Below are positions 3,503 to 13,048 of a stretch of DNA of 64,000 nt, in pieces. This DNA is from Pseudomonadales bacterium (lineage in GTDB: Bacteria > Pseudomonadota > Gammaproteobacteria > Pseudomonadales > CAWVSB01). Within the stretch, counting starts at the first letter, position 1; every line of letters begins with the position of its first letter. The DNA lies in the NCBI GenBank assembly GCA_046710535.1, contig JBKEHH010000007.1, positions 32,639-96,638 of the forward strand. The letters are read 5' to 3'. The translations under genes and the position numbers were made by a program. Under the pieces are notes generated by a model. It saw only the letters and a list, made by a program, of their open reading frames with translations, searched no databases and had not been told where the DNA came from.

Positions 3503-5200
3503 CTATATAAGTCCGTCGCGCCATTGGCTAACCGCATAGTCGCAGGCTCTGGCAGTAAGGGCCATATAAGTAAGTGACGGGTTTACCGATGCAGATGATG
3601 GCATTGCGGCGCCGTCAGTGACAAATAAATTGGGCACATCATGTGACTGATTCCATTTGTTTAGCACCGATGTTTTTGGGTCGAGTCCCATGCGTGCGCC
3701 ACCCATTTCGTGTATGGCCGCGCCCGGTGATGCCTCTGCTTCGCCTGAGATAAATGCTACCGCGCCGGCCGCTTTTAAAATATCTTCAGCCTGCACTTTG
3801 GCATCACTGGCGGCTTTTATCTCGTTCTCACTCCATTCAAAATTAACCTTTACTTGGCCAATGCCATAGCGATCTGGCTGGCTATCATCTAATGTCATTT
3901 GGTTGTTTTTATTAGGTAGGCATTCGCCAAAGCTAGTTAACAAATGCGCCCACGGGCCGGGTTTACGTAAGTTGTCTTTTAAGTCTTTGCCAAAACCTTT
4001 TTGGTGCAGGGTTTGCCGCCAATCTAAGCGCAGAGTATTGGATTGGAAGCCATAGCCGCGCACAAAATCTACATTGTCGTTATTCCCTGGTAGATTTCTA
4101 AACCTTGGTATGTAAGTACCATTTGGGCGGAAGCCATAAAAATAACGATCAATATTATCGACAAAAATACCAACACCGCTGACGGTCATATGATGATCCA
4201 TTAAATATTGTCCCAAGGTGCCACTTGAATTTGCGATACCACTAGGGTGAGATTCTGACGTAGAGTTAAGTAATATTTGGTTAGTGCCAATGGTTGATGC
4301 ACACATAAACACCATGTCGCTACTAAACTCTAAAACCTCTTTAGTATTGGCATCTATTACTCTTACTGCATTGACCTTGTTTGTTTCTTTATCGTAAAGA
4401 AGTTTTTCTACTACACTGTTTGGTCTCAGCGTTAACCTCCCGGTAGCTTCCGCTGCCGGTAAGGTAGAACTTTGAGTACTAAAGTAGCTGCCGGTAGAGC
4501 AGCCGCGTGGGCAGGGGCCGCAGTAGTGACAGGCGGCGCGGCCATTATGGTCTTGGGTGAGTATGGCGGCTCGGCCGATTGTCATGGTTAGGTCTGGCCG
4601 TTTTTTTTCTAGTCTAGCTTTAATAGTTTTTTCCACCGAATACATTTCCATTGGCGGTAAAAACTCACCGTCGGGAAAATGTTCAAGTCCTTCCTTCTGT
4701 CCACTTACGCCTATAAATTTTTCAACATAAGCGTACCAGTCTTTCAAATCCTCATAACGAATTGGCCAATCAACTCCGTGGCCATCTTGTTTGTTTGCCT
4801 CAAAATCTTGTGGGCTCCAGCGATATACTTGACGGCCCCAAATTAGCGATCGTCCGCCGACTCGTGAGCCCCTTACCCAATAAAAAGGTTTGTTTTTATC
4901 AAATAAATAAGGATTAAGTCTGTCGTTATTAAAATAATGCAGGGTGGAGGAATCGAGTGCGCCACCTGAACCTCCATCTTGTTGTGCGAAGTCAGTAGCC
5001 AATAGTTCTCTGTTAGGTAAGCCGTTATAAGGTAGTTTCCAGTTAGGTGCATGCTCCCCCAAATAGCCTTGGCTATGTTTTAAATCTGAGCCGCGTTCTA
5101 GCATTAAAACCCGCAGGCCTTTCTCTGTCAGCTCTTTAGCGGCCCAGCCACCAGTAATACCTGAACCAACCACTATTGCGTCAAAATGGGTATTATTCAT
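3503..5200 (-). CDS. GMC family FAD-dependent oxidoreductase (glucoside/gluconate dehydrogenase-like large subunit)
   Basis: 565 aa with the N-terminal FAD fold DAIVVGSGITGGWAAKEL. C-terminal GMC region (HEMGGARMG...NLFVTDGAAMPS). Confidence 0.9.
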   Translation of the reverse strand: MNNTHFDAIVVGSGITGGWAAKELTEKGLRVLMLERGSDLKHSQGYLGEHAPNWKLPYNGLPNRELLATDFAQQDGGSGGALDSSTLHYFNNDRLNPYLFDKNKPFYWVRGSRVGGRSLIWGRQVYRWSPQDFEANKQDGHGVDWPIRYEDLKDWYAYVEKFIGVSGQKEGLEHFPDGEFLPPMEMYSVEKTIKARLEKKRPDLTMTIGRAAILTQDHNGRAACHYCGPCPRGCSTGSYFSTQSSTLPAAEATGRLTLRPNSVVEKLLYDKETNKVNAVRVIDANTKEVLEFSSDMVFMCASTIGTNQILLNSTSESHPSGIANSSGTLGQYLMDHHMTVSGVGIFVDNIDRYFYGFRPNGTYIPRFRNLPGNNDNVDFVRGYGFQSNTLRLDWRQTLHQKGFGKDLKDNLRKPGPWAHLLTSFGECLPNKNNQMTLDDSQPDRYGIGQVKVNFEWSENEIKAASDAKVQAEDILKAAGAVAFISGEAEASPGAAIHEMGGARMGLDPKTSVLNKWNQSHDVPNLFVTDGAAMPSSASVNPSLTYMALTARACDYAVSQWRDGLI

Positions 5201-5221
5201 AACTTTTTCTAGCGTGGTTGC

Positions 5222-5842
5222 TTACATTAGTGGAACGGATACCCATGAACTTGCGTCTTGATCTAACGGTATGTCACCTTCAAAACGACCAGGAAAATGG
5301 TTCATACGCAATACTTGGGTTGAACCAACCTCTGACATAAAAAAGCCAAAAATAGTGAGCTCTTTAATTATGGCAATAAATGGCGCACTGGTTTCAAAGC
5401 CGCTGGCAGCGCCAAGGTTATACCAGGGATGGTTATCGCTAGCGTCTTCCATCTGCTCTAGAACAGTAATCTTTTGGTCATCACTGCAGTTAGCAAAACC
5501 TTGTTGATATTGATTCATCGCTAGTTGGTCTATCTCAAGCAGACCAGCAAAAAATTCGCCGCGTTCTTGATCTGTCATCCATTCGCAGGCAATGAGTTCT
5601 ATAAATCTAGGTACTTTAGCTATTGTTGCCCCAGGGCTATCAGTCTCAGGAATAATTGCTTCACAGACAACAGTAACCATGGCGCGTTGTTCGCCAGAAA
5701 AAGTAGTAGCGCTGGCAGTGGTATAAGCATCCCGCAGGAATATATGCTTGGCGTCGCTATCCATTAATGAGGCCAAGGCTTGCGAGTGAATAGTGCCGCC
5801 AAGTGCTAACGCAGCTAGGCTAGAAAACTGTCTTCGGTTCAT
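5222..5842 (-). CDS. Gluconate 2-dehydrogenase subunit 3-like small subunit (Tat signal)
   Basis: 206 aa with a twin-arginine leader MNRRQFSSLAALALGG. It lies directly upstream of the GMC gene and in the same orientation, the canonical small-subunit arrangement. Confidence 0.8.
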   Translation of the reverse strand: MNRRQFSSLAALALGGTIHSQALASLMDSDAKHIFLRDAYTTASATTFSGEQRAMVTVVCEAIIPETDSPGATIAKVPRFIELIACEWMTDQERGEFFAGLLEIDQLAMNQYQQGFANCSDDQKITVLEQMEDASDNHPWYNLGAASGFETSAPFIAIIKELTIFGFFMSEVGSTQVLRMNHFPGRFEGDIPLDQDASSWVSVPLM

Positions 5843-6073: not shown

Positions 6074-6475
6074 ATGTATGAAATTGTTAAATCGATATCC
6101 TTTTGTTATGGGCATAGATTACTGAATTATGTAGGGCCTTGTGCGCATCTACATGGCCATAATGCTAGTGTCGATATTAAATTGGCCAGTGAAAATCTTG
6201 ACGAACGCGGCATGGTGATGGATTTTAGTGATGTTAAATCAGTTGTTAAAAAATGGCTTGACGAGAATCTAGATCACACAATGTTACTGGCAGCTGATGA
6301 TCCGATAATCCCGATATTGGAACAAGCTGGCGAGAAATTCTACGTGATGAAAAAGAACCCAACAGCGGAATATATTGCGGAGCATATTTATGAGTTTGTT
6401 GAATTACAGGGTTTTCCAATTGTTGATGTGACTTTATGGGAGACCCCTACGAGTTACGCACGTTTTAGTCGATAA
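6074..6475 (+). CDS. queD: 6-carboxy-5,6,7,8-tetrahydropterin synthase (6-pyruvoyl-tetrahydropterin synthase family)
   Basis: 133 aa. Motifs CYGHRLL and CAHLHGHN (Zn/catalytic His cluster) and the DH..L motif of the PTPS/QueD family. Confidence 0.85.
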   Translation: MYEIVKSISFCYGHRLLNYVGPCAHLHGHNASVDIKLASENLDERGMVMDFSDVKSVVKKWLDENLDHTMLLAADDPIIPILEQAGEKFYVMKKNPTAEYIAEHIYEFVELQGFPIVDVTLWETPTSYARFSR

Positions 6476-6496
6476 AATCATTTGAACAATTGCTAG

Positions 6497-6531
6497 AGGT
6501 CATATTGCTTTTCGTAGTATGACCTTTTTTA
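6497..6531. terminator. Rho-independent terminator hairpin between convergent queD and mmsB
   Basis: AGGTCATA - 13-nt loop - TATGACCT followed by a T6 run. It lies between two convergent stop codons. Confidence 0.6.
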
Positions 6532-6534
6532 TAC

Positions 6535-7428
6535 TTAGCTTTGTTGATAGTATTTCAAAATACTCGAAAAATCTAAGTTACAGGTCTCATCATTCGAGTA
6601 CTCGCTATATAGCTTATTGGCCATTTCACCCATAGGGGTTTTTGAATCGCTAGCATCGGCGGCGGCCATGGCTAAGCCCAAATCTTTCTGCATTAACTTC
6701 ACCATAAAACCAGGTTTGTAGTCGTTACTCGCTGGAGCTACTTCCATTACGCCGGGGTAGGGGTTGTACTTCTCCAGCGACCAGTTTGCGCCTGAGCTTT
6801 TAAGCATAATATTTGATAACACTGCAGGATCTAAACCGTTGTCAGCGCCTAGTTGCAGTGCCTCTGCAGTACCTGTCATATGGATAGCTAGCAGCATGTT
6901 GTTACATACTTTGGCTATTTGGCCAGCCCCTGCATCACCGGCGCGGAACACATTAGCGCCCATTACGCCGAGTACTGTTTTTGCATCTTCTACCGCATCT
7001 TCTGTGCCGCCACACATAAAGGCGAGTGTGCCTGCGGCGGCTGCGGCTACGCCGCCAGATACTGGTGCGTCGATTGCGCGAATATTTTTTGCGGTGGCAG
7101 CGCTTGCCAGCGCGCGTGAATTTTCCGGAGCGACAGTAGAGCAGTCGATTACTAAACAGTCTTGGGCAATATAATCTAACAGCTTGGTATCGTGAATATA
7201 TAAACTTTCAACAATAGCTCCCGACGGTAACATGCTAATGACGAAGTTAGCGCCCACTACTGCGTCTATCGCGGTGGCAGCAGCCGTTGCGCCTTCATCA
7301 ACTAAAGGTTGAGTGAGGCTGGTTTGTAGGTCGAAGCAGACCACATTAAACTCTGCTTTAATTAGGTTGCTGGCCATTGGGCCGCCCATATTACCTAGAC
7401 CAATAAATGCTACTGTTTGTTTGCTCAT
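6535..7428 (-). CDS. mmsB: 3-hydroxyisobutyrate dehydrogenase
   Basis: 297 aa. N-terminal NAD fold VAFIGLGNMGGPMA. Family-typical DAPVSGG and KD.GLA motifs. Last gene of the valine-catabolic operon. Confidence 0.9.
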   Translation of the reverse strand: MSKQTVAFIGLGNMGGPMASNLIKAEFNVVCFDLQTSLTQPLVDEGATAAATAIDAVVGANFVISMLPSGAIVESLYIHDTKLLDYIAQDCLVIDCSTVAPENSRALASAATAKNIRAIDAPVSGGVAAAAAGTLAFMCGGTEDAVEDAKTVLGVMGANVFRAGDAGAGQIAKVCNNMLLAIHMTGTAEALQLGADNGLDPAVLSNIMLKSSGANWSLEKYNPYPGVMEVAPASNDYKPGFMVKLMQKDLGLAMAAADASDSKTPMGEMANKLYSEYSNDETCNLDFSSILKYYQQS

Positions 7429-7478
7429 GATTATTCCTGCTGCTTATTTATTAGGTTTATGTTGTTTGTTAAGTAGGG

Positions 7479-8600
7479 CTATAGTGCGGCTAATGGATTT
7501 GACGCAGCGCCCCAAGGAGCGACAAAGTGGTGCTGTACAAACTCGTCGCTTAGCTCGTCTAAAGTGGCGGGTTGGTAGCTTGGGTTGCGATCTTTATCAA
7601 CTAGCAAGGCTCGCACGCCTTCTTGAAAGTTGCCGTAACGAGAGCAGTTAAGCGACATGATTAACTCCATTTGGAATACCTCGCTTAGGCTCATGTCTTT
7701 TGCCCTAAGTAGTTGTTGCTGCACCAGGGCAAAACTTGTCACACAACCTTTACTCACATTTTTAACGGCGGTTTGAAGAAATTTGTCATCACTTTCAATC
7801 GCTAAAATGGCGTTAATGATTTCGTGCAGCGAATCTTTGCCAGTAACTTCTTCAATAAGATCTCGATGAGTAACAATATTGCCGACAGGTTTATCAGCTT
7901 CAGCTTGCTGCTCAAATGGTTTTAATACTTCCGAGATCTGATTTTTTACTTCTGCGCTGTCTTCCAGAAATTCAATTTTCTGCAGCGCAGCGATAACATT
8001 TTTTTGTTGGCTGCTATTGATGAAATGATCGCCCAGGTTTACTTCTAGTGCGTCATTGCCATTAATTTGCGCGCCAGTTAAACCCATAAACAAGCCGGTA
8101 TTGCCGGGAGCTTTATTTAAAAACCAGCTGCCGCCAACATCAGGGTATAAGCCAATGCTAATTTCAGGCATCGCCATGCGGGTTGTTTCAGTCACTATCC
8201 GATGGCTGCCGCCGGCGGTAAGACCGATGCCACCACCAAAACAAATACCAGACGCCCATACAATGAAAGGCTTCTTGTAGCTATGTATATGGTGGTTTAG
8301 GGTGTATTCACGTTGGAAAAAACCAAGCGCGTAAGGGTTGTCACCACCTTCGGTCTCAACAATTGAATCATACAGTTGGCGCACATCGCCGCCAGCGCAG
8401 AAAGCTTTTTCACCAGCGCTTTGCAAAAATACACAGCTTATAGATTGGTTGCTTTCCCACTCGTTAAGTTTAGCTTGAATGAGATCAACCATATCTAAAC
8501 TTAATGAGTTAAGGGTTTGTTCTACATTAATGGTAATCAGGCCAATGCTTTTGCTATTGGCCGTACTAAGTTCTTCAAAAAGTACTATTGCGTCTGACAT
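7479..8600 (-). CDS. 3-hydroxyisobutyryl-CoA hydrolase (ECH_2 crotonase family)
   Basis: 373 aa. Crotonase core FCAGGDV...GGG.GL...PE..IG.PDVG. The long C-terminal extension is typical of HIBCH. Operon context supports the call. Confidence 0.85.
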   Translation of the reverse strand: MSDAIVLFEELSTANSKSIGLITINVEQTLNSLSLDMVDLIQAKLNEWESNQSISCVFLQSAGEKAFCAGGDVRQLYDSIVETEGGDNPYALGFFQREYTLNHHIHSYKKPFIVWASGICFGGGIGLTAGGSHRIVTETTRMAMPEISIGLYPDVGGSWFLNKAPGNTGLFMGLTGAQINGNDALEVNLGDHFINSSQQKNVIAALQKIEFLEDSAEVKNQISEVLKPFEQQAEADKPVGNIVTHRDLIEEVTGKDSLHEIINAILAIESDDKFLQTAVKNVSKGCVTSFALVQQQLLRAKDMSLSEVFQMELIMSLNCSRYGNFQEGVRALLVDKDRNPSYQPATLDELSDEFVQHHFVAPWGAASNPLAAL

Positions 8601-8638
8601 AAGGTCCCTGTTTTTATCACTAAGTTCTATTCATTTTT

Positions 8639-9415
8639 TTATTTATTTTTCCATTTGGGTGCGCGTTTTTCAACGAATGCAGCTACGCCTTCTTTTTGAT
8701 CTTCGCTATCCCAAAGTTTTACAAACTGTTGACGCTCAAGGGCAAAATTACTGGTAAGCGGAGTGGTACGTGCTGCCATGATTAATTCTTTGCAATAGCG
8801 CACAGACGTTGGGCTCTGCTTCGCGGCATTGCCTGCTAGCTTAATAGCATGCTCTAAGCCTTCGCCTTTACCGACCACTTCTGAGATTAAGCCTATAGCT
8901 AATGCTTTATCGGTTTTCAGGCGCTCGCCTAAAAGAATCATTCGTTTGGCCCATTGCTCACCAACCAACCAAGCTAGGTGTTGGCTGCCTAAGCCGCAGG
9001 GTAGTAGGCCAACAGCACATTCTGGCAAGGCCATTTGAGCGTGCTCTTCAGCAATGCGAACATCGCAGGCTAGAGCAACTTCTAAACCACCACCCATGGC
9101 ATAGCCGTTAATAGCAGCAATTGAGACACCTTGGTAATTGGCCAGAGTTTCAAAAGCTGAGCCAAATGCATAAGAGAAGTCGAATGATTTGGCTTTGTCG
9201 TCGTGATTAAAACGATTTAAGTCAGCCCCCGCTGAGAAGAATTTTTCGCCTTCGCCGGTAATAACTAATGCGTAGTTATCAACGTCTGCATTGAGATCTT
9301 TAACAATGCTTTTAAGTTCCAATAAGCTCTCAGGTGTCCAAGTGTGAGCAGGTGGATTATTTAAAGTAACTACGGCTGTGTGGCCTTGCTTTTCTAATAT
9401 CAGTGCGTCGCTCAT
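8639..9415 (-). CDS. Enoyl-CoA hydratase (methacrylyl-CoA hydratase candidate)
   Basis: 258 aa. Crotonase motifs FSAGADL, GYAMGGGLEVALACD and PECAVGL. Confidence 0.9.
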   Translation of the reverse strand: MSDALILEKQGHTAVVTLNNPPAHTWTPESLLELKSIVKDLNADVDNYALVITGEGEKFFSAGADLNRFNHDDKAKSFDFSYAFGSAFETLANYQGVSIAAINGYAMGGGLEVALACDVRIAEEHAQMALPECAVGLLPCGLGSQHLAWLVGEQWAKRMILLGERLKTDKALAIGLISEVVGKGEGLEHAIKLAGNAAKQSPTSVRYCKELIMAARTTPLTSNFALERQQFVKLWDSEDQKEGVAAFVEKRAPKWKNK

Positions 9416-10572
9416 CGGATTTCCTTGGTTGCATTTTCGGCTAATAGACGACGTGCCACGATAACTCGCATCACTTCGTTAGTGCCTTCTAAAATTTGAT
9501 GTACTCGGGTATCACGGAAAAACCGTTCAATTGGGTATTCGCGCAGATAGCCATAGCCGCCATGTAATTGCAGTGCTTGATTACAGACTTCAAATCCCAC
9601 ATCGGTAGCAAAGCGTTTTGCCATGGCGCAGTAAGTGGTTTTATCTGGATGGTTGTTATCCAAATAGCTGGCGGCCATACGTACCATTTGGCGGGCGGCC
9701 ACCAATTCGGTGGTCATGTCGGCTAGTTTAAATTGCAATGCTTGAAAGTTAGCTATTGCTTGGCCGAACTGTTTGCGCTCCAAAATATATTTCTGTGCAT
9801 GGTCGATAGTCGTTTGCGCAGCCCCAATAGAACAGGTGGCAATATTAATCCGACCCCCGTCTAAACCTGACATGGCGAGTTTAAAGCCTTGTCCTTCAGC
9901 GCCAAGTAAGTTTTCTTTAGGTACTTTTACGTTATCAAACGAAATTGCACGGGTAGGTTGGCTGTTCCAGCCCATTTTGGCTTCGTTCTTACCGAACTCT
10001 ATGCCGAGAGTGTCAGACGGAATGGCAAATGCACTGACGCCTTTAGGTCCAGCGTCGCCGGTGCGAGCCATCACCACTAATAACTCGGTGCTACCTGCGC
10101 CACTGATGAACATTTTACTACCATTAATAAGGTAATGGTCACCGTCTAACTTGGCGCTAGTTTGCAGTGAACCTGCATCGCTGCCGGCGTTAGGCTCGGT
10201 TAAGCAATATGAGGCTAATACTTGCCCGGCAGTAAGTTTACCTGCCCACTCAGTTTTAAATTCTGCTGTGCCCCAGCCGCATACCATCCATGTAGCCATA
10301 TTATGAATAGAGATAAAGGCCGCAGTGGAAGTGCAAGCGCCGGCCAATTCTTCCAGAATAATAGCGGCATCTAAACGGGACATGCCCATGCCGCCATCTT
10401 CTTCGGGGCTGTACATACCGCAAAAACCCAGCTCACCTGATTGCTTGATAACATCGACTGGAAAGAATTTTTCTTCATCCCATTTAGCGGCATTGGGGGC
10501 AAGTTCCCCCTCAGCAAAAAGCCTGGCGGCGTCTTGAAATGCTAGCTGATCTTCTGAAAGGGAAAAGTCCAT
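9412..10572 (-). CDS. Acyl-CoA dehydrogenase (isobutyryl-CoA dehydrogenase candidate)
   Basis: 386 aa. ACAD signatures (LTEPNAGSD, QLHGGYGY..EYP.ER..RD.R...I.EGT.E). 4-bp overlap with the downstream crotonase gene. Confidence 0.9.
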   Translation of the reverse strand: MDFSLSEDQLAFQDAARLFAEGELAPNAAKWDEEKFFPVDVIKQSGELGFCGMYSPEEDGGMGMSRLDAAIILEELAGACTSTAAFISIHNMATWMVCGWGTAEFKTEWAGKLTAGQVLASYCLTEPNAGSDAGSLQTSAKLDGDHYLINGSKMFISGAGSTELLVVMARTGDAGPKGVSAFAIPSDTLGIEFGKNEAKMGWNSQPTRAISFDNVKVPKENLLGAEGQGFKLAMSGLDGGRINIATCSIGAAQTTIDHAQKYILERKQFGQAIANFQALQFKLADMTTELVAARQMVRMAASYLDNNHPDKTTYCAMAKRFATDVGFEVCNQALQLHGGYGYLREYPIERFFRDTRVHQILEGTNEVMRVIVARRLLAENATKEIR

Positions 10573-10593
10573 GAGCTTCCTTTTAGTTGTTTA

Positions 10594-11982
10594 CTATTTT
10601 AATTTTGCCATTACTGAACCAAATAATTCTTCATCAGAAGGTAATACTTTAGTTTTAGCTAATGGTTTTGACACCCAAGTTTCGTTGACTAAGTCGCGCC
10701 AGGTGATATTGTCATTAATGCTATTGCCACCCCATGAACCGCAACCCAAGGAGAAGGTTTGACGCATGCCATTCCATAAGTTACCGCTGTTTGAAGCCGA
10801 TTGTGGTTGGTTAACCATTACCCGAGAAGTTTTGGTTTCGCTGGCTAGCTTTAAAATATTATCATCATTAGTTGAGTAAATACCACAAGAGTGACCCTGG
10901 CCTTGATAGGCTTGAATATTGTTAGTTAGCGCAATCGCTTCATCAATATTACCTACTTTATACAGCGCCATAGTGACCGAGAGTTTTTCACCCGAGAAAG
11001 GATGCGCTGGACCGTAACCTGTTTCAGGAACAATAAAAAATAGTCTGTCGGCAGGCATATCAATGCCAGCCATAGTAGCGATTTTAGTCGCTTCTTGAGC
11101 CACAATAGCGGTGTTTAAATGGTCGTCTACCCAAATAGTATTTTGTAATTTGGTTTTGTCTTGGCCGTCTACTATGAATCCGCCTTGCGCTACTAGCTTG
11201 GCAAGCATGTCGTCATAGATTGTATCGAACAAAATAACCGAGTTGTCAGATGAGCAAGAAGCGGCTAAATCTAGAGTTTTAGAAATACGGATTTTTTCCG
11301 CTGCATCATCTAAGTCTGCAGTGTCATCAACCGTAATTACTGCATTGCCTACGCCAACTCCTAGCGCTGGTGTGCCGCTAGAATAGGCTGCCGATACCAT
11401 GGCCCCGCCGCCAGTTGCCAAGATGCGGTCACATTGTTTCATCAACTCGTTAGTTAATGGTAATGATGGTGTCTCTATACCAATGACTAAGTCGGCAGGT
11501 GCGCCCATGGCTTCAAGCGCTTCACGCATATAGTTACAGATCATGGTGTTAGTTAGTTTGGCGCGTGGGTGTGGTGCAATAATAATCGAGTTGCGACCTT
11601 TAACTGCCGAGATAGCTTTGATCACCGGCGTCGCTTCTGGGTTAGTTGAGGGTGATAGTGCGCCGATGACACCGACTGGTTTAGCAATTTTTACAATATT
11701 GCGTTCAGGTAGTTCTTCAATAATACCTACTGATTTGTCGTCAATAATATCCATTAAGGTAGCGCGAGTCTTTCTAAATATTTTTAGATACTTACCGTCA
11801 TAGTTACCTAGTCGAGTTTCTTCCACCGCGAATTTAGCAATTTTCTCAGCAATTCCTGGTTTGGCAATAGACCACACCATAGCCTTAATCAACTCATCAA
11901 CTTGCTGTTGGCTGTAGTGTTCTATTTGCGCTTGTGCCGCTCGGCTACGGGCAACTAATTCTGCCATCTGCTGCTGTTCCAT
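10594..11982 (-). CDS. CoA-acylating aldehyde dehydrogenase of the AdhE-N-terminal/EutE/SucD type (stand-alone)
   Basis: 462 aa. Collinear with my recollection of the E. coli AdhE ALDH domain: ..RAAQ..YSQQQVD.., ILATGGGAMV.AAYSSG.PALGVGVGN, the catalytic Cys region ASCSSDNSV, and C-terminal LGCGSWGGNSI. First gene of the operon. Confidence 0.8.
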   Translation of the reverse strand: MEQQQMAELVARSRAAQAQIEHYSQQQVDELIKAMVWSIAKPGIAEKIAKFAVEETRLGNYDGKYLKIFRKTRATLMDIIDDKSVGIIEELPERNIVKIAKPVGVIGALSPSTNPEATPVIKAISAVKGRNSIIIAPHPRAKLTNTMICNYMREALEAMGAPADLVIGIETPSLPLTNELMKQCDRILATGGGAMVSAAYSSGTPALGVGVGNAVITVDDTADLDDAAEKIRISKTLDLAASCSSDNSVILFDTIYDDMLAKLVAQGGFIVDGQDKTKLQNTIWVDDHLNTAIVAQEATKIATMAGIDMPADRLFFIVPETGYGPAHPFSGEKLSVTMALYKVGNIDEAIALTNNIQAYQGQGHSCGIYSTNDDNILKLASETKTSRVMVNQPQSASNSGNLWNGMRQTFSLGCGSWGGNSINDNITWRDLVNETWVSKPLAKTKVLPSDEELFGSVMAKLK

Positions 11983-12175
11983 GGTGTGCTCCTAAACTCT
12001 GTTGGTGCTAAAAATTGGCTAATCATCGTAATATTTTTAAGGTCGCAAGCATAGCCTTAGCGTGGCATGGTGCAAATTGAGTATATTGTCTTTATGATGG
12101 ACAATATTGCTGATTTTATGCGACTTAGCTTATTTCGATAATTTCACATAACTTTCTGATTAATATAGATTAATT

Positions 12176-13048
12176 ATGCAGATTACATCTAACTGGCCAT
12201 TGCCAGCTGAAGGTATTCGGTTTTTGGTGCCACAATTTTTACAAAATTGGTTACAGCAAAGCCCGTTGACACGTGACTTGTATCCTATTGCCTTGGGATA
12301 TTATCCGGTTGCTATCAACCATGTGATGAACCGGAGTAGTCATGATAATCATTTGCTGATGTATTGCACCCAGGGCAAAGGCTGGGTAACCGCAGCTGAT
12401 CAAAGCTTTCAAGTTACTGCTGGCGATGTGTTTTGTCTGCCTCGGGGTGTGGCGCATTCTTATGGCGCTGATAATAGCGACCCGTGGACCATTTATTGGG
12501 TGCATTACAATGGCGCTTTAAGCCATGACTATAATCAGTTTCTTGCTGGTGATAGCACCGTGGTTCATGTAGGGATTCAGCCTCGCTTACGGGCTGACTT
12601 TGAGGCGCTATTTAGTCTGCGCAAAGCCGGTTATTCTAGCGTCGAGTTTGTGCATGGCGCTTGCCAGTTAAAGCAGATGCTTAGCTACGTCGCAGTGCTC
12701 GCTAAACGCAGCTTATCAAGGCAGGGCCGGTTTAACTTAGATGATATTGAAGAGTTAATGGCGCTGCACATTCATAGCAGTCTCGATCTAGCATCGTTAG
12801 CAGCCCAAGCCCAGCTATCTAAATATCATTTCTCACGCAAGTTTAAACAGCTGACGGGGCATTCGCCAATTCAGCATTTTTTGCATTTAAAAATTCAGCA
12901 CGCTTGCCTATTGTTAGACACTAGCGACAATAGTATTAAGCAAATAGCGGGTGAAGTAGGTTACAGCGATGCTTATTACTTTTCGCGTCTTTTTAAGCAG
13001 GTTATGGGGGTATCGCCAAGTGGATATCGCAGTAAGTTAAAGGTTTAA
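12176..13048 (+). CDS. AraC family transcriptional regulator (cupin sensor plus HTH), divergent from the catabolic operon
   Basis: 290 aa. C-terminal AraC HTH (LSKYHFSRKFKQLTGHSP...GYSDAYYFSRLFKQVMGVSPSGYR). Confidence 0.85.
   Translation: MQITSNWPLPAEGIRFLVPQFLQNWLQQSPLTRDLYPIALGYYPVAINHVMNRSSHDNHLLMYCTQGKGWVTAADQSFQVTAGDVFCLPRGVAHSYGADNSDPWTIYWVHYNGALSHDYNQFLAGDSTVVHVGIQPRLRADFEALFSLRKAGYSSVEFVHGACQLKQMLSYVAVLAKRSLSRQGRFNLDDIEELMALHIHSSLDLASLAAQAQLSKYHFSRKFKQLTGHSPIQHFLHLKIQHACLLLDTSDNSIKQIAGEVGYSDAYYFSRLFKQVMGVSPSGYRSKLKV

Follow-up and report, generated by a model that had tools for sequence, protein, structure and literature searches.

An acylating aldehyde dehydrogenase related to SucD and SauS as the probable replacement of MmsA in a proteobacterial valine operon

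Which enzyme acts on methylmalonate semialdehyde in a bacterium that has the operon for valine catabolism and lacks MmsA? The question is raised by a stretch of 64,000 nucleotides (the window) of contig JBKEHH010000007.1 (GenBank assembly GCA_046710535.1, positions 32,639 to 96,638), which belongs to a Cellvibrionales metagenome-assembled genome (MAG) that is 94% complete. The valine/isobutyrate operon of this window is headed by a gene that encodes a coenzyme A (CoA)-acylating aldehyde dehydrogenase, referred to here as the ALDH, in place of the methylmalonate-semialdehyde dehydrogenase MmsA, which is treated, to our knowledge, as the universal last step of the pathway in textbook metabolism. 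The comparisons of sequences and genomes presented here indicate that the ALDH is probably the methylmalonate-semialdehyde dehydrogenase of the operon, having displaced MmsA in situ, given the absence of MmsA from the genome, the conserved association of the ALDH with the operon, the displacement visible between related genomes, and the complementary distribution of the two enzymes.

The slot of MmsA and its occupant

The gene (10594-11982, minus strand) is an uninterrupted reading frame of 462 codons, with its ATG at 11982, and its translation contains all three of the motifs (ILATGGGAMV.AAYSSG.PALGVGVGN, ASCSSDNSV, and LGCGSWGGNSI) quoted in the initial annotation, which had assigned the first gene of the operon to the acylating clade of SucD and the AdhE N-terminal domain, rather than to the MmsA type. 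This assignment is borne out by the profiles, the sequence comparisons, and the fold. The profile scan returned no match of the ALDH to TIGR01722, the MmsA model, and the protein is absent from the 11 matches of this model in the genome at E ≤ 0.001 (model cut-off 448.5 bits). Among the NCBIfam models, SauS (NF047625) scores highest, with 514 bits (cut-off 600), ahead of the AdhE N-terminal half, with 412 bits, and the EutH-type acetaldehyde dehydrogenase, with 345 bits, and the protein is matched weakly by the Pfam model Aldedh (67 bits). When solved structures were searched with phmmer, SucD of Clostridium kluyveri (8CEI; E 4e-96) was followed by AdhE (1e-87) and 3K9D (1e-72), each match spanning residues 4-455, and the ranking after SucD consists of AdhE N-terminal domains and stand-alone acetylating dehydrogenases. 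The AlphaFold model, built from a 50-sequence alignment, has a mean pLDDT of 96.7, and its best Foldseek matches in the PDB are the SucD structures 8CEK, 8CEI, and 8CEJ (TM 0.94-0.97, root-mean-square deviation 1.5-1.7 Å, 39% identity); the top 33 matches are acylating ALDHs without exception. Cys243 and His364 are invariant across 50 homologues of the ALDH, and Ser365 is conserved in at least 90% of them; Cys243 aligns with Cys242 of SucD, and His364-Ser365 with His364-Thr365. The ALDH is a genuine enzyme of the AdhE-N/SucD/EutE/PduP class (ALDH20, cd07121/cd07122), and its catalytic apparatus looks intact.

The genes that follow the ALDH encode an acyl-CoA dehydrogenase (ACAD), an enoyl-CoA hydratase (ECH), a 3-hydroxyisobutyryl-CoA hydrolase (HIBCH), and the 3-hydroxyisobutyrate dehydrogenase MmsB. 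This is, as proposed at the outset, the canonical order of the mmsA-led valine operon, and exactly this slot is occupied by MmsA in a related genome. Within a single family of the order, genome G107 (locus L109) carries AraC, MmsA, ACAD, ECH, HIBCH, and MmsB, whereas genome G148 (locus L110) carries AraC, ALDH, ACAD, ECH, HIBCH, and MmsB, and orthologues of the same AraC-type regulator stand before the MmsA-led and the ALDH-led operons alike. No canonical mmsA was found above the TIGR01722 cut-off elsewhere in the genome of the window, where the best match reaches 287 bits, and the top three sub-threshold matches are a betaine-aldehyde dehydrogenase, a succinate-semialdehyde dehydrogenase, and a generic aldehyde dehydrogenase. 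MmsA was absent, too, from each of the 10 further ALDH-carrying genomes that were checked; the carriers that lack MmsA include Haliea salexigens DSM 19537, Pseudohalioglobus lutimaris HF004, Sphingorhabdus sp. EL138, and Parasphingorhabdus sp. JC815.

The survey of this operon variant, which the initial annotation had called for, found it to be widespread. The ALDH adjoins an ACAD gene in 66 of 80 loci, in named genomes of the Gamma- and Alphaproteobacteria, and the hosts in this set include Halieaceae, Spongiibacteraceae, Sphingorhabdaceae, Sphingomicrobiaceae, Novosphingobium, Hirschia, and Rhodobacterales. The genes are arranged as ACAD-ECH-HIBCH-MmsB in the Gammaproteobacteria and as ACAD-HIBCH-ECH-MmsB in the Alphaproteobacteria, and as the association of the ALDH holds in both of these orders, it does not represent one cassette that has been copied around.

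The distribution of the two enzymes was assessed in 201 evenly sampled genomes of the order, and MmsB is present in 94 of these. Related genomes are not independent of one another, and raw P values were accordingly disregarded. Among these 94, MmsA alone is found in 68, the ALDH alone in 19, both enzymes in five, and neither in two, one of which is only 75% complete. In the four genomes with both enzymes that were examined, MmsA lies away from the operon, beside a class-III aminotransferase, beside genes of the SDR, hydrolase, and TonB types, or with a LysR regulator alone. The order-level sample around the Parasphingorhabdus genome contained too few carriers (2 of 121 genomes), and a sample of one alphaproteobacterial family was used instead, in which MmsA is absent from five of the six ALDH carriers, versus seven of the 75 non-carriers. 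The complementary pattern recurs across at least nine families of the one order and in a second class, so that MmsA and the ALDH come close to being mutually exclusive in two independent taxa, and close to accounting, together, for all the MmsB-carrying genomes. The shared slot and the complementary distribution in two taxa lend strong comparative support to the earlier proposal of a non-orthologous replacement at the methylmalonate-semialdehyde step, in which the ALDH would act as MmsA does, although it falls outside the MmsA family.

The operons of the Sphingorhabdaceae type contain a gene of the polysaccharide-deacetylase family (PF01522; approximately 315-325 amino acids) between the ALDH and the ACAD (L052:9446-10393, L070, L076, L078, and L083:9776-10753). 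A gene of 135 codons of the glyoxalase family, directly 3' of the ALDH in L083, was considered as a methylmalonyl-CoA epimerase and rejected; it has no match to TIGR03081, and is unique to this locus. Operons of the proteobacterial type were also recovered from MAGs labelled Bifidobacterium, Cryomorphaceae, Marinimicrobia, Klebsiella pneumoniae, Verrucomicrobiaceae, and Kuenenia (L014, L019, L025, L027, L033, L044, and L072), and these contigs are probably mis-binned, rather than derived from true hosts.

Relatives, substrate pocket, and alternative substrates

The homologue search covered 1.84 billion representatives at 50% identity, and recovered 4719 related clusters. Eighty full-length members were included in a tree (LG+G4, quick search), the deep branches of which need caution, and in which SucD itself is not a row. 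The ALDH of the window and its relatives of 76-82% identity form a tight clade (SH-aLRT 99), whose sister is one protein only (P0122, 57% identical). This clade falls within the "SauS-like" half of the tree, the other half of which holds the AdhE N-terminal domains and further acetaldehyde dehydrogenases, and it lies outside the clade of proteins that exceed the NCBI cut-off for SauS. A true SauS representative (P0129; 799 bits on NF047625, 45% identical to the ALDH) is placed in a separate clade of 24 rows (support 98). Two other SauS-like proteins below the threshold have unrelated contexts, with a TRAP transporter and an alcohol dehydrogenase in the case of P0123, and ComA, a lyase, and an ADP-forming CoA ligase in that of P0124. 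Given its distinct clade and the unrelated contexts of these proteins, the ALDH represents a distinct, unnamed subfamily, and the phylogenetic placement that had been recommended thus shows it as sister to neither true SauS nor AdhE.

The name under which the family appears in the databases is "aldehyde dehydrogenase family protein" in NCBI, and "sulfoacetaldehyde dehydrogenase" for many members in JGI. The latter name, which is that of JGI/KEGG-style annotation, together with SauS as the best NCBIfam match and SucD as the best structural match, would favour a genuine SauS (which interconverts sulfoacetaldehyde and sulfoacetyl-CoA) or a genuine SucD, with a position in the operon that is unrelated to valine. 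This is highly improbable, as the ALDH falls short of the SauS cut-off, in a clade apart from a true SauS with which it shares less than half of its residues, in a neighbourhood of valine genes that is conserved across two classes, with a distribution complementary to that of MmsA, and with no sulfonate or 4-hydroxybutyrate genes beside it. SauS (EC 1.2.1.81) is nonetheless the nearest named family, and shares with the ALDH the R-K-T at 70-72 and the Cys-Ser at 243-244; the substrate of SauS, like that predicted for the ALDH, is an aldehyde with an anionic group on the adjacent carbon. The two differ in their motifs (LDLAASC in the ALDH, FDNxTSC in SauS; GMRQT versus GLPFT), and in their neighbours, which are ACAD, ECH, HIBCH, MmsB, and AraC in the case of the ALDH, instead of sulfoacetate-pathway genes. 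SucD (EC 1.2.1.76) has the same fold, the same catalytic Cys and His-Ser/Thr, and a similar stand-alone length of approximately 450-460 amino acids, but its reaction, which is part of 4-hydroxybutyrate fermentation, runs in the reductive direction with a C4 dicarboxyl-CoA, whereas the ALDH, encoded in an aerobic valine operon, would have a branched C4 beta-carboxy aldehyde as its substrate. MmsA (the MmsA/IolA/ALDH6A1 family; EC 1.2.1.27) is, like the ALDH, a CoA-acylating thiol enzyme that heads an AraC-regulated operon, although it comes from another branch of the ALDH superfamily, and has approximately 500 residues.

The substrate pocket distinguishes the ALDH from the relatives that act on plain aldehydes. 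PduP closes its pocket with Leu158, Leu483, and Val331, the counterparts of which in SucD are Lys70, Thr395, and Ser243, with Lys70 and Ser243 binding the distal carboxylate (PMC10249356). In the alignment, the ALDH has Lys71, Ser395 (Ala in some of its kin), and Ser244 at these positions, thus keeping both of the carboxylate-binding residues and a small residue at 395, while true SauS has Lys, Thr, and Ser, and AdhE has Ala at the first and third positions. The ALDH family has, in addition, the invariant residues Arg70 and Arg73 (K-I-x-R-K-T-R-A) and Arg407 (G-M-R-Q-T), which SucD does not share, and CSSDN replaces CSSE(N/Q), the form in SucD being CSSEQ. The three pocket residues and the family arginines mark the ALDH as an enzyme for anion-bearing acyl groups, and Arg70, Arg73, and Arg407 probably help to hold the distal carboxylate of the substrate. 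Lys64 and Lys67, which were also considered as markers of an anionic substrate, were rejected, since AdhE has both; Lys71 alone discriminates.

The operon would convert isobutyryl-CoA to methacrylyl-CoA, 3-hydroxyisobutyryl-CoA, 3-hydroxyisobutyrate, and then methylmalonate semialdehyde, the aldehyde of which would be attacked by Cys243 of the ALDH. By analogy with SucD and PduP, the hydride would be passed to NAD(P)+, and the acyl group would be accepted by CoA with the help of His364 and Ser365, while Lys71 and Ser244, and probably the three arginines, would hold the distal carboxylate.

Some points weigh against this assignment. The two enzymes do occur together, in the five genomes of the order sample and in one of the alphaproteobacterial family sample. 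The literature searches found no paper that assigns a methylmalonate-semialdehyde role to the clade of the ALDH, which is in keeping with the original statement that this substrate is not established for it. In a 2025 review of the ALDH superfamilies, sulfoacetaldehyde is not mentioned, the passage retrieved on the CoA-acylating family has succinyl-CoA and propionyl-CoA reductases alone, and the passages retrieved for methylmalonate semialdehyde are reference-list entries for the classical dehydrogenase. Finally, the search of the 94%-complete genome yielded no clear branched-chain 2-oxoacid dehydrogenase, which leaves the source of isobutyryl-CoA unsettled; the only cluster of a heterodimeric E1 alpha/beta 2-oxoacid dehydrogenase (G000:C4:211000-223000, L122) resembles pyruvate dehydrogenase, and lies beside a carotenoid-cleavage-type dioxygenase and a thiolase.

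This last point would fit a feeder enzyme, which would bypass the branched-chain 2-oxoacid dehydrogenase by turning isobutyraldehyde or another branched aldehyde (derived from an amine, an alcohol, or a 2-oxoisovalerate decarboxylase) into isobutyryl-CoA, while some other enzyme handles methylmalonate semialdehyde. The position of the ALDH gene immediately 5' of the ACAD would suit such a role, and the related PduP, EutE, and AdhE N-terminal domains, which share the fold and the catalytic Cys/His mechanism at 26-37% identity, use plain aliphatic aldehydes. These relatives, however, either carry a fused alcohol dehydrogenase or occur in association with microcompartments, and neither is true of the ALDH; its pocket is the polar, basic set of SucD and SauS, not the hydrophobic one of PduP or the Ala of AdhE. 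A feeder is also quite unlikely because the same slot holds MmsA in a sister genome, because methylmalonate semialdehyde would lack an enzyme in 19 of the 24 genomes with an ALDH operon, and because in six loci the partner of the ALDH is methylmalonyl-CoA mutase, not an ACAD.

Malonate semialdehyde may also be considered as the main substrate, with acetyl-CoA or malonyl-CoA as the product. Possible sources of this compound are beta-alanine, 3-hydroxypropionate, uracil, and a modified form of propionyl-CoA beta-oxidation, for which the ACAD, hydratase, hydrolase, and dehydrogenase of the operon itself would serve. MmsA enzymes generally accept both semialdehydes, 3-hydroxypropionyl analogues are known to be used by HIBCH- and MmsB-type enzymes, and malonate semialdehyde is isosteric with sulfoacetaldehyde, the substrate of SauS. 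On the other side, the methylmalonyl-CoA route found in all the carriers makes a modified beta-oxidation of propionate redundant, the MmsB lies far above the equivalog cut-off for 3-hydroxyisobutyrate dehydrogenase, and the beta-alanine-type aminotransferase adjoins MmsA, not the ALDH, in a genome that has both. Malonate semialdehyde is, then, an unlikely main substrate, although its use is compatible with methylmalonate semialdehyde as the principal one, and a dual specificity is likely.

Some of the proteins in the tree deserve comment in their own right. P0122, the sister of the query clade, is a protein of 515 amino acids (L100:7001-8548) from a JGI metagenome contig of 272 kb, where the remaining genes (RRP12 HEAT, a ubiquitin-conjugating enzyme, an IQ protein, and a P450) have a eukaryotic appearance. 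The N-terminal extension of P0122, of approximately 50 residues, is acidic, and is unlike a typical mitochondrial presequence; the locus may represent a transfer from a bacterium to a eukaryote. P0034 (81% identical), from a Tribonema transcriptome, was rejected as a eukaryotic member, given that its bacterial length and its identity point to probable bacterial contamination. P0124 (51% identical to the ALDH; L102:1-13507) lies with a ComA that resembles phosphosulfolactate synthase, two genes of the fumarate-lyase family, a PALP enzyme, the ADP-forming CoA ligase, and an NMT1/ABC transporter, a cluster which may encode an uncharacterised sulfonate or dicarboxylate pathway.

Product of the predicted reaction

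MmsA decarboxylates its thioacyl intermediate and releases propionyl-CoA, and the initial annotation assumed that the product of the ALDH would be, likewise, propionyl-CoA, or acetyl-CoA from malonate semialdehyde. This part of the proposal is amended here, as the evidence rather favours methylmalonyl-CoA. The nearest characterised relatives, SauS and SucD, keep the anionic group, and if the ALDH is like them, it would make methylmalonyl-CoA. Provided that the substrate is correct, a product that retains the carboxylate has somewhat better than an even chance, the alternative being propionyl-CoA and CO2, by a decarboxylation like that of MmsA. The reaction as a whole (methylmalonate semialdehyde + CoA + NAD(P)+ → methylmalonyl-CoA + NAD(P)H), as a shorter route from valine and isobutyrate straight into the mutase, is proposed tentatively, with a chance that falls below even.

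The distribution of methylmalonyl-CoA mutase points in the same direction. Within the order sample, the mutase is present in all 24 of the genomes that carry both the ALDH and MmsB, in comparison with 14 of the other 70 with MmsB; by family, these values are nine of nine ALDH-bearing families and four of 22 others. Fifty-four genomes have MmsA and MmsB with no mutase, and none has the ALDH with no mutase. One "Pseudomonadales" MAG lineage, moreover, has six loci in which the ALDH lies outside the valine operon, directly 3' of a mutase gene (NF006944, 1209 bits) and on the same strand, and in the four genomes of this lineage that were searched, MmsB is located elsewhere and MmsA is absent.

Other observations temper this conclusion. 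The co-occurrence with the mutase could reflect inheritance, as the ALDH-bearing families may be one ancestrally mutase-positive group. The six adjacent loci represent a single lineage (mutases 87-96% identical), and hence one event, and the gap between the two genes, of approximately 145 to 240 bp, is no proof of co-transcription; it is for these reasons that the retention of the carboxylate is placed only modestly above an even chance. The genome of the window, in addition, encodes a carboxyltransferase, a biotin carboxylase, methylmalonyl-CoA epimerase, the mutase, and MeaB in one cluster (G000:C1:306506-314731; L118:3506-11731), and with this propionyl-CoA carboxylase-like set beside the epimerase and mutase, either product would be usable. 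No methylisocitrate lyase (prpB) was found in this genome.

If methylmalonyl-CoA is the product, it would enter through the epimerase and mutase encoded in that cluster, skipping the ATP-dependent propionyl-CoA carboxylase. By Cahn-Ingold-Prelog bookkeeping, (S)-methylmalonate semialdehyde from valine would yield (R)-methylmalonyl-CoA, the substrate of the mutase; methylmalonate semialdehyde racemises easily. We know of no natural enzyme that has been assigned to the conversion of methylmalonate semialdehyde to methylmalonyl-CoA without decarboxylation, and the reaction would thus be new, in a variant of the pathway that spares the ATP and bicarbonate consumed by propionyl-CoA carboxylase. Such a reaction would account, too, for a spread of the gene that is confined to Gamma- and Alphaproteobacteria with the mutase. 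Engineered routes to 3-hydroxyisobutyrate and methacrylate currently use promiscuous malonyl-CoA or succinyl-CoA reductases, and a non-decarboxylating ALDH would provide them with a ready methylmalonyl-CoA reductase.

Two of the proteins in the L118 cluster are unusual, that is, the biotin-carboxylase protein, which is exceptionally long (952 amino acids), and the carboxyltransferase of 575 amino acids, which reaches only 323 bits on the mmdA/PccB-type model. In the lineage where the ALDH lies 3' of the mutase, an integron integrase is located directly downstream, on the opposite strand (L017:9445-10455, minus strand; TIGR02249, 477 bits), and an LLM-class F420-type oxidoreductase abuts the start of the mutase. 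The integrase reading frames of L029 and L051, the former of which is split in two, were assigned by BLASTP clustering with L017.

Spread of the gene, significance, and features of the locus

The ALDH is far more strongly conserved between the classes (76-82% identity) than its operon partners, with values of 54-68% for ACAD, 41-65% for MmsB, and 29-50% for HIBCH; these ranges exclude L013, a 99%-identical near-copy of the window locus. The Alpha- and Gammaproteobacteria interleave in the ALDH tree, with eight changes of label, whereas the ACAD tree is at its minimum of five. This combination is consistent with the repeated lateral acquisition of the ALDH into pre-existing operons, although it falls short of proof, given the short deep branches and their weak support. 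The GC content of the gene (43.6%) is that of the window (43.3%), and there is, therefore, no compositional sign of a recent transfer.

The replacement of MmsA would mean that the valine step is filled by a different lineage of enzymes in abundant marine groups (relatives of the Halieaceae/OM60-NOR5, the Sphingorhabdaceae, and others), and that a known reaction slot holds another lineage with, possibly, new chemistry. Automated pipelines score such genomes either as missing a step or as having a sulfoacetate gene, and as a result of this mislabelling, the counts of "sauS" in marine metagenomes are probably inflated.

The coordinates of the locus are given in Table 1. The junctions from the ALDH through ACAD, ECH, and HIBCH to MmsB measure 21, -4, 38, and 50 nucleotides. 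The scans of the locus for promoters and terminators remained at the level of chance, except for the hairpin. The 24 sequencing runs found for positions 6500-12100 are DNA metagenomes throughout, with no RNA data set among them.

Table 1. Coordinates of the ALDH operon and its flanking elements within the window.
Feature	Position	Strand	Description
ALDH gene	10594..11982	-	stand-alone protein of 462 aa, a CoA-acylating aldehyde dehydrogenase (SucD/SauS/AdhE-N type) with a predicted role as methylmalonate-semialdehyde dehydrogenase
Shine-Dalgarno sequence AGGAG	11989..11993	-	6 nt 5' of the ALDH ATG
Divergent intergenic region, ALDH/AraC-type regulator	11983..12175	.	193 bp; presumed promoter/operator, with weak consensus matches
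AraC-family regulator	12176..13048	+	cupin/AraC_binding N-terminal domain; divergent from the ALDH operon
ACAD	9412..10572	-	predicted isobutyryl-CoA dehydrogenase, from its position in the operon
ECH	8639..9415	-	PRK09076 above cut-off; predicted methacrylyl-CoA hydratase; 4-nt overlap with the ACAD stop
HIBCH	7479..8600	-	PRK05617, 347 bits (cut-off 274); ECH_2 also above cut-off
MmsB	6535..7428	-	3-hydroxyisobutyrate dehydrogenase; TIGR01692, 379 bits (cut-off 292)
Hairpin, 14-bp stem	6495..6527	.	between mmsB and a convergent queD-like gene; probable operon terminator, from a consensus match

The genes on the far side of mmsB, past the 3' end of the operon, are unrelated to the role of the ALDH. 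They include a gene of the QueD/PTPS family (6074-6475, plus strand), and, further on, a GMC-family oxidoreductase with a partner that resembles subunit 3 of gluconate-2-dehydrogenase (3503-5842, minus strand).

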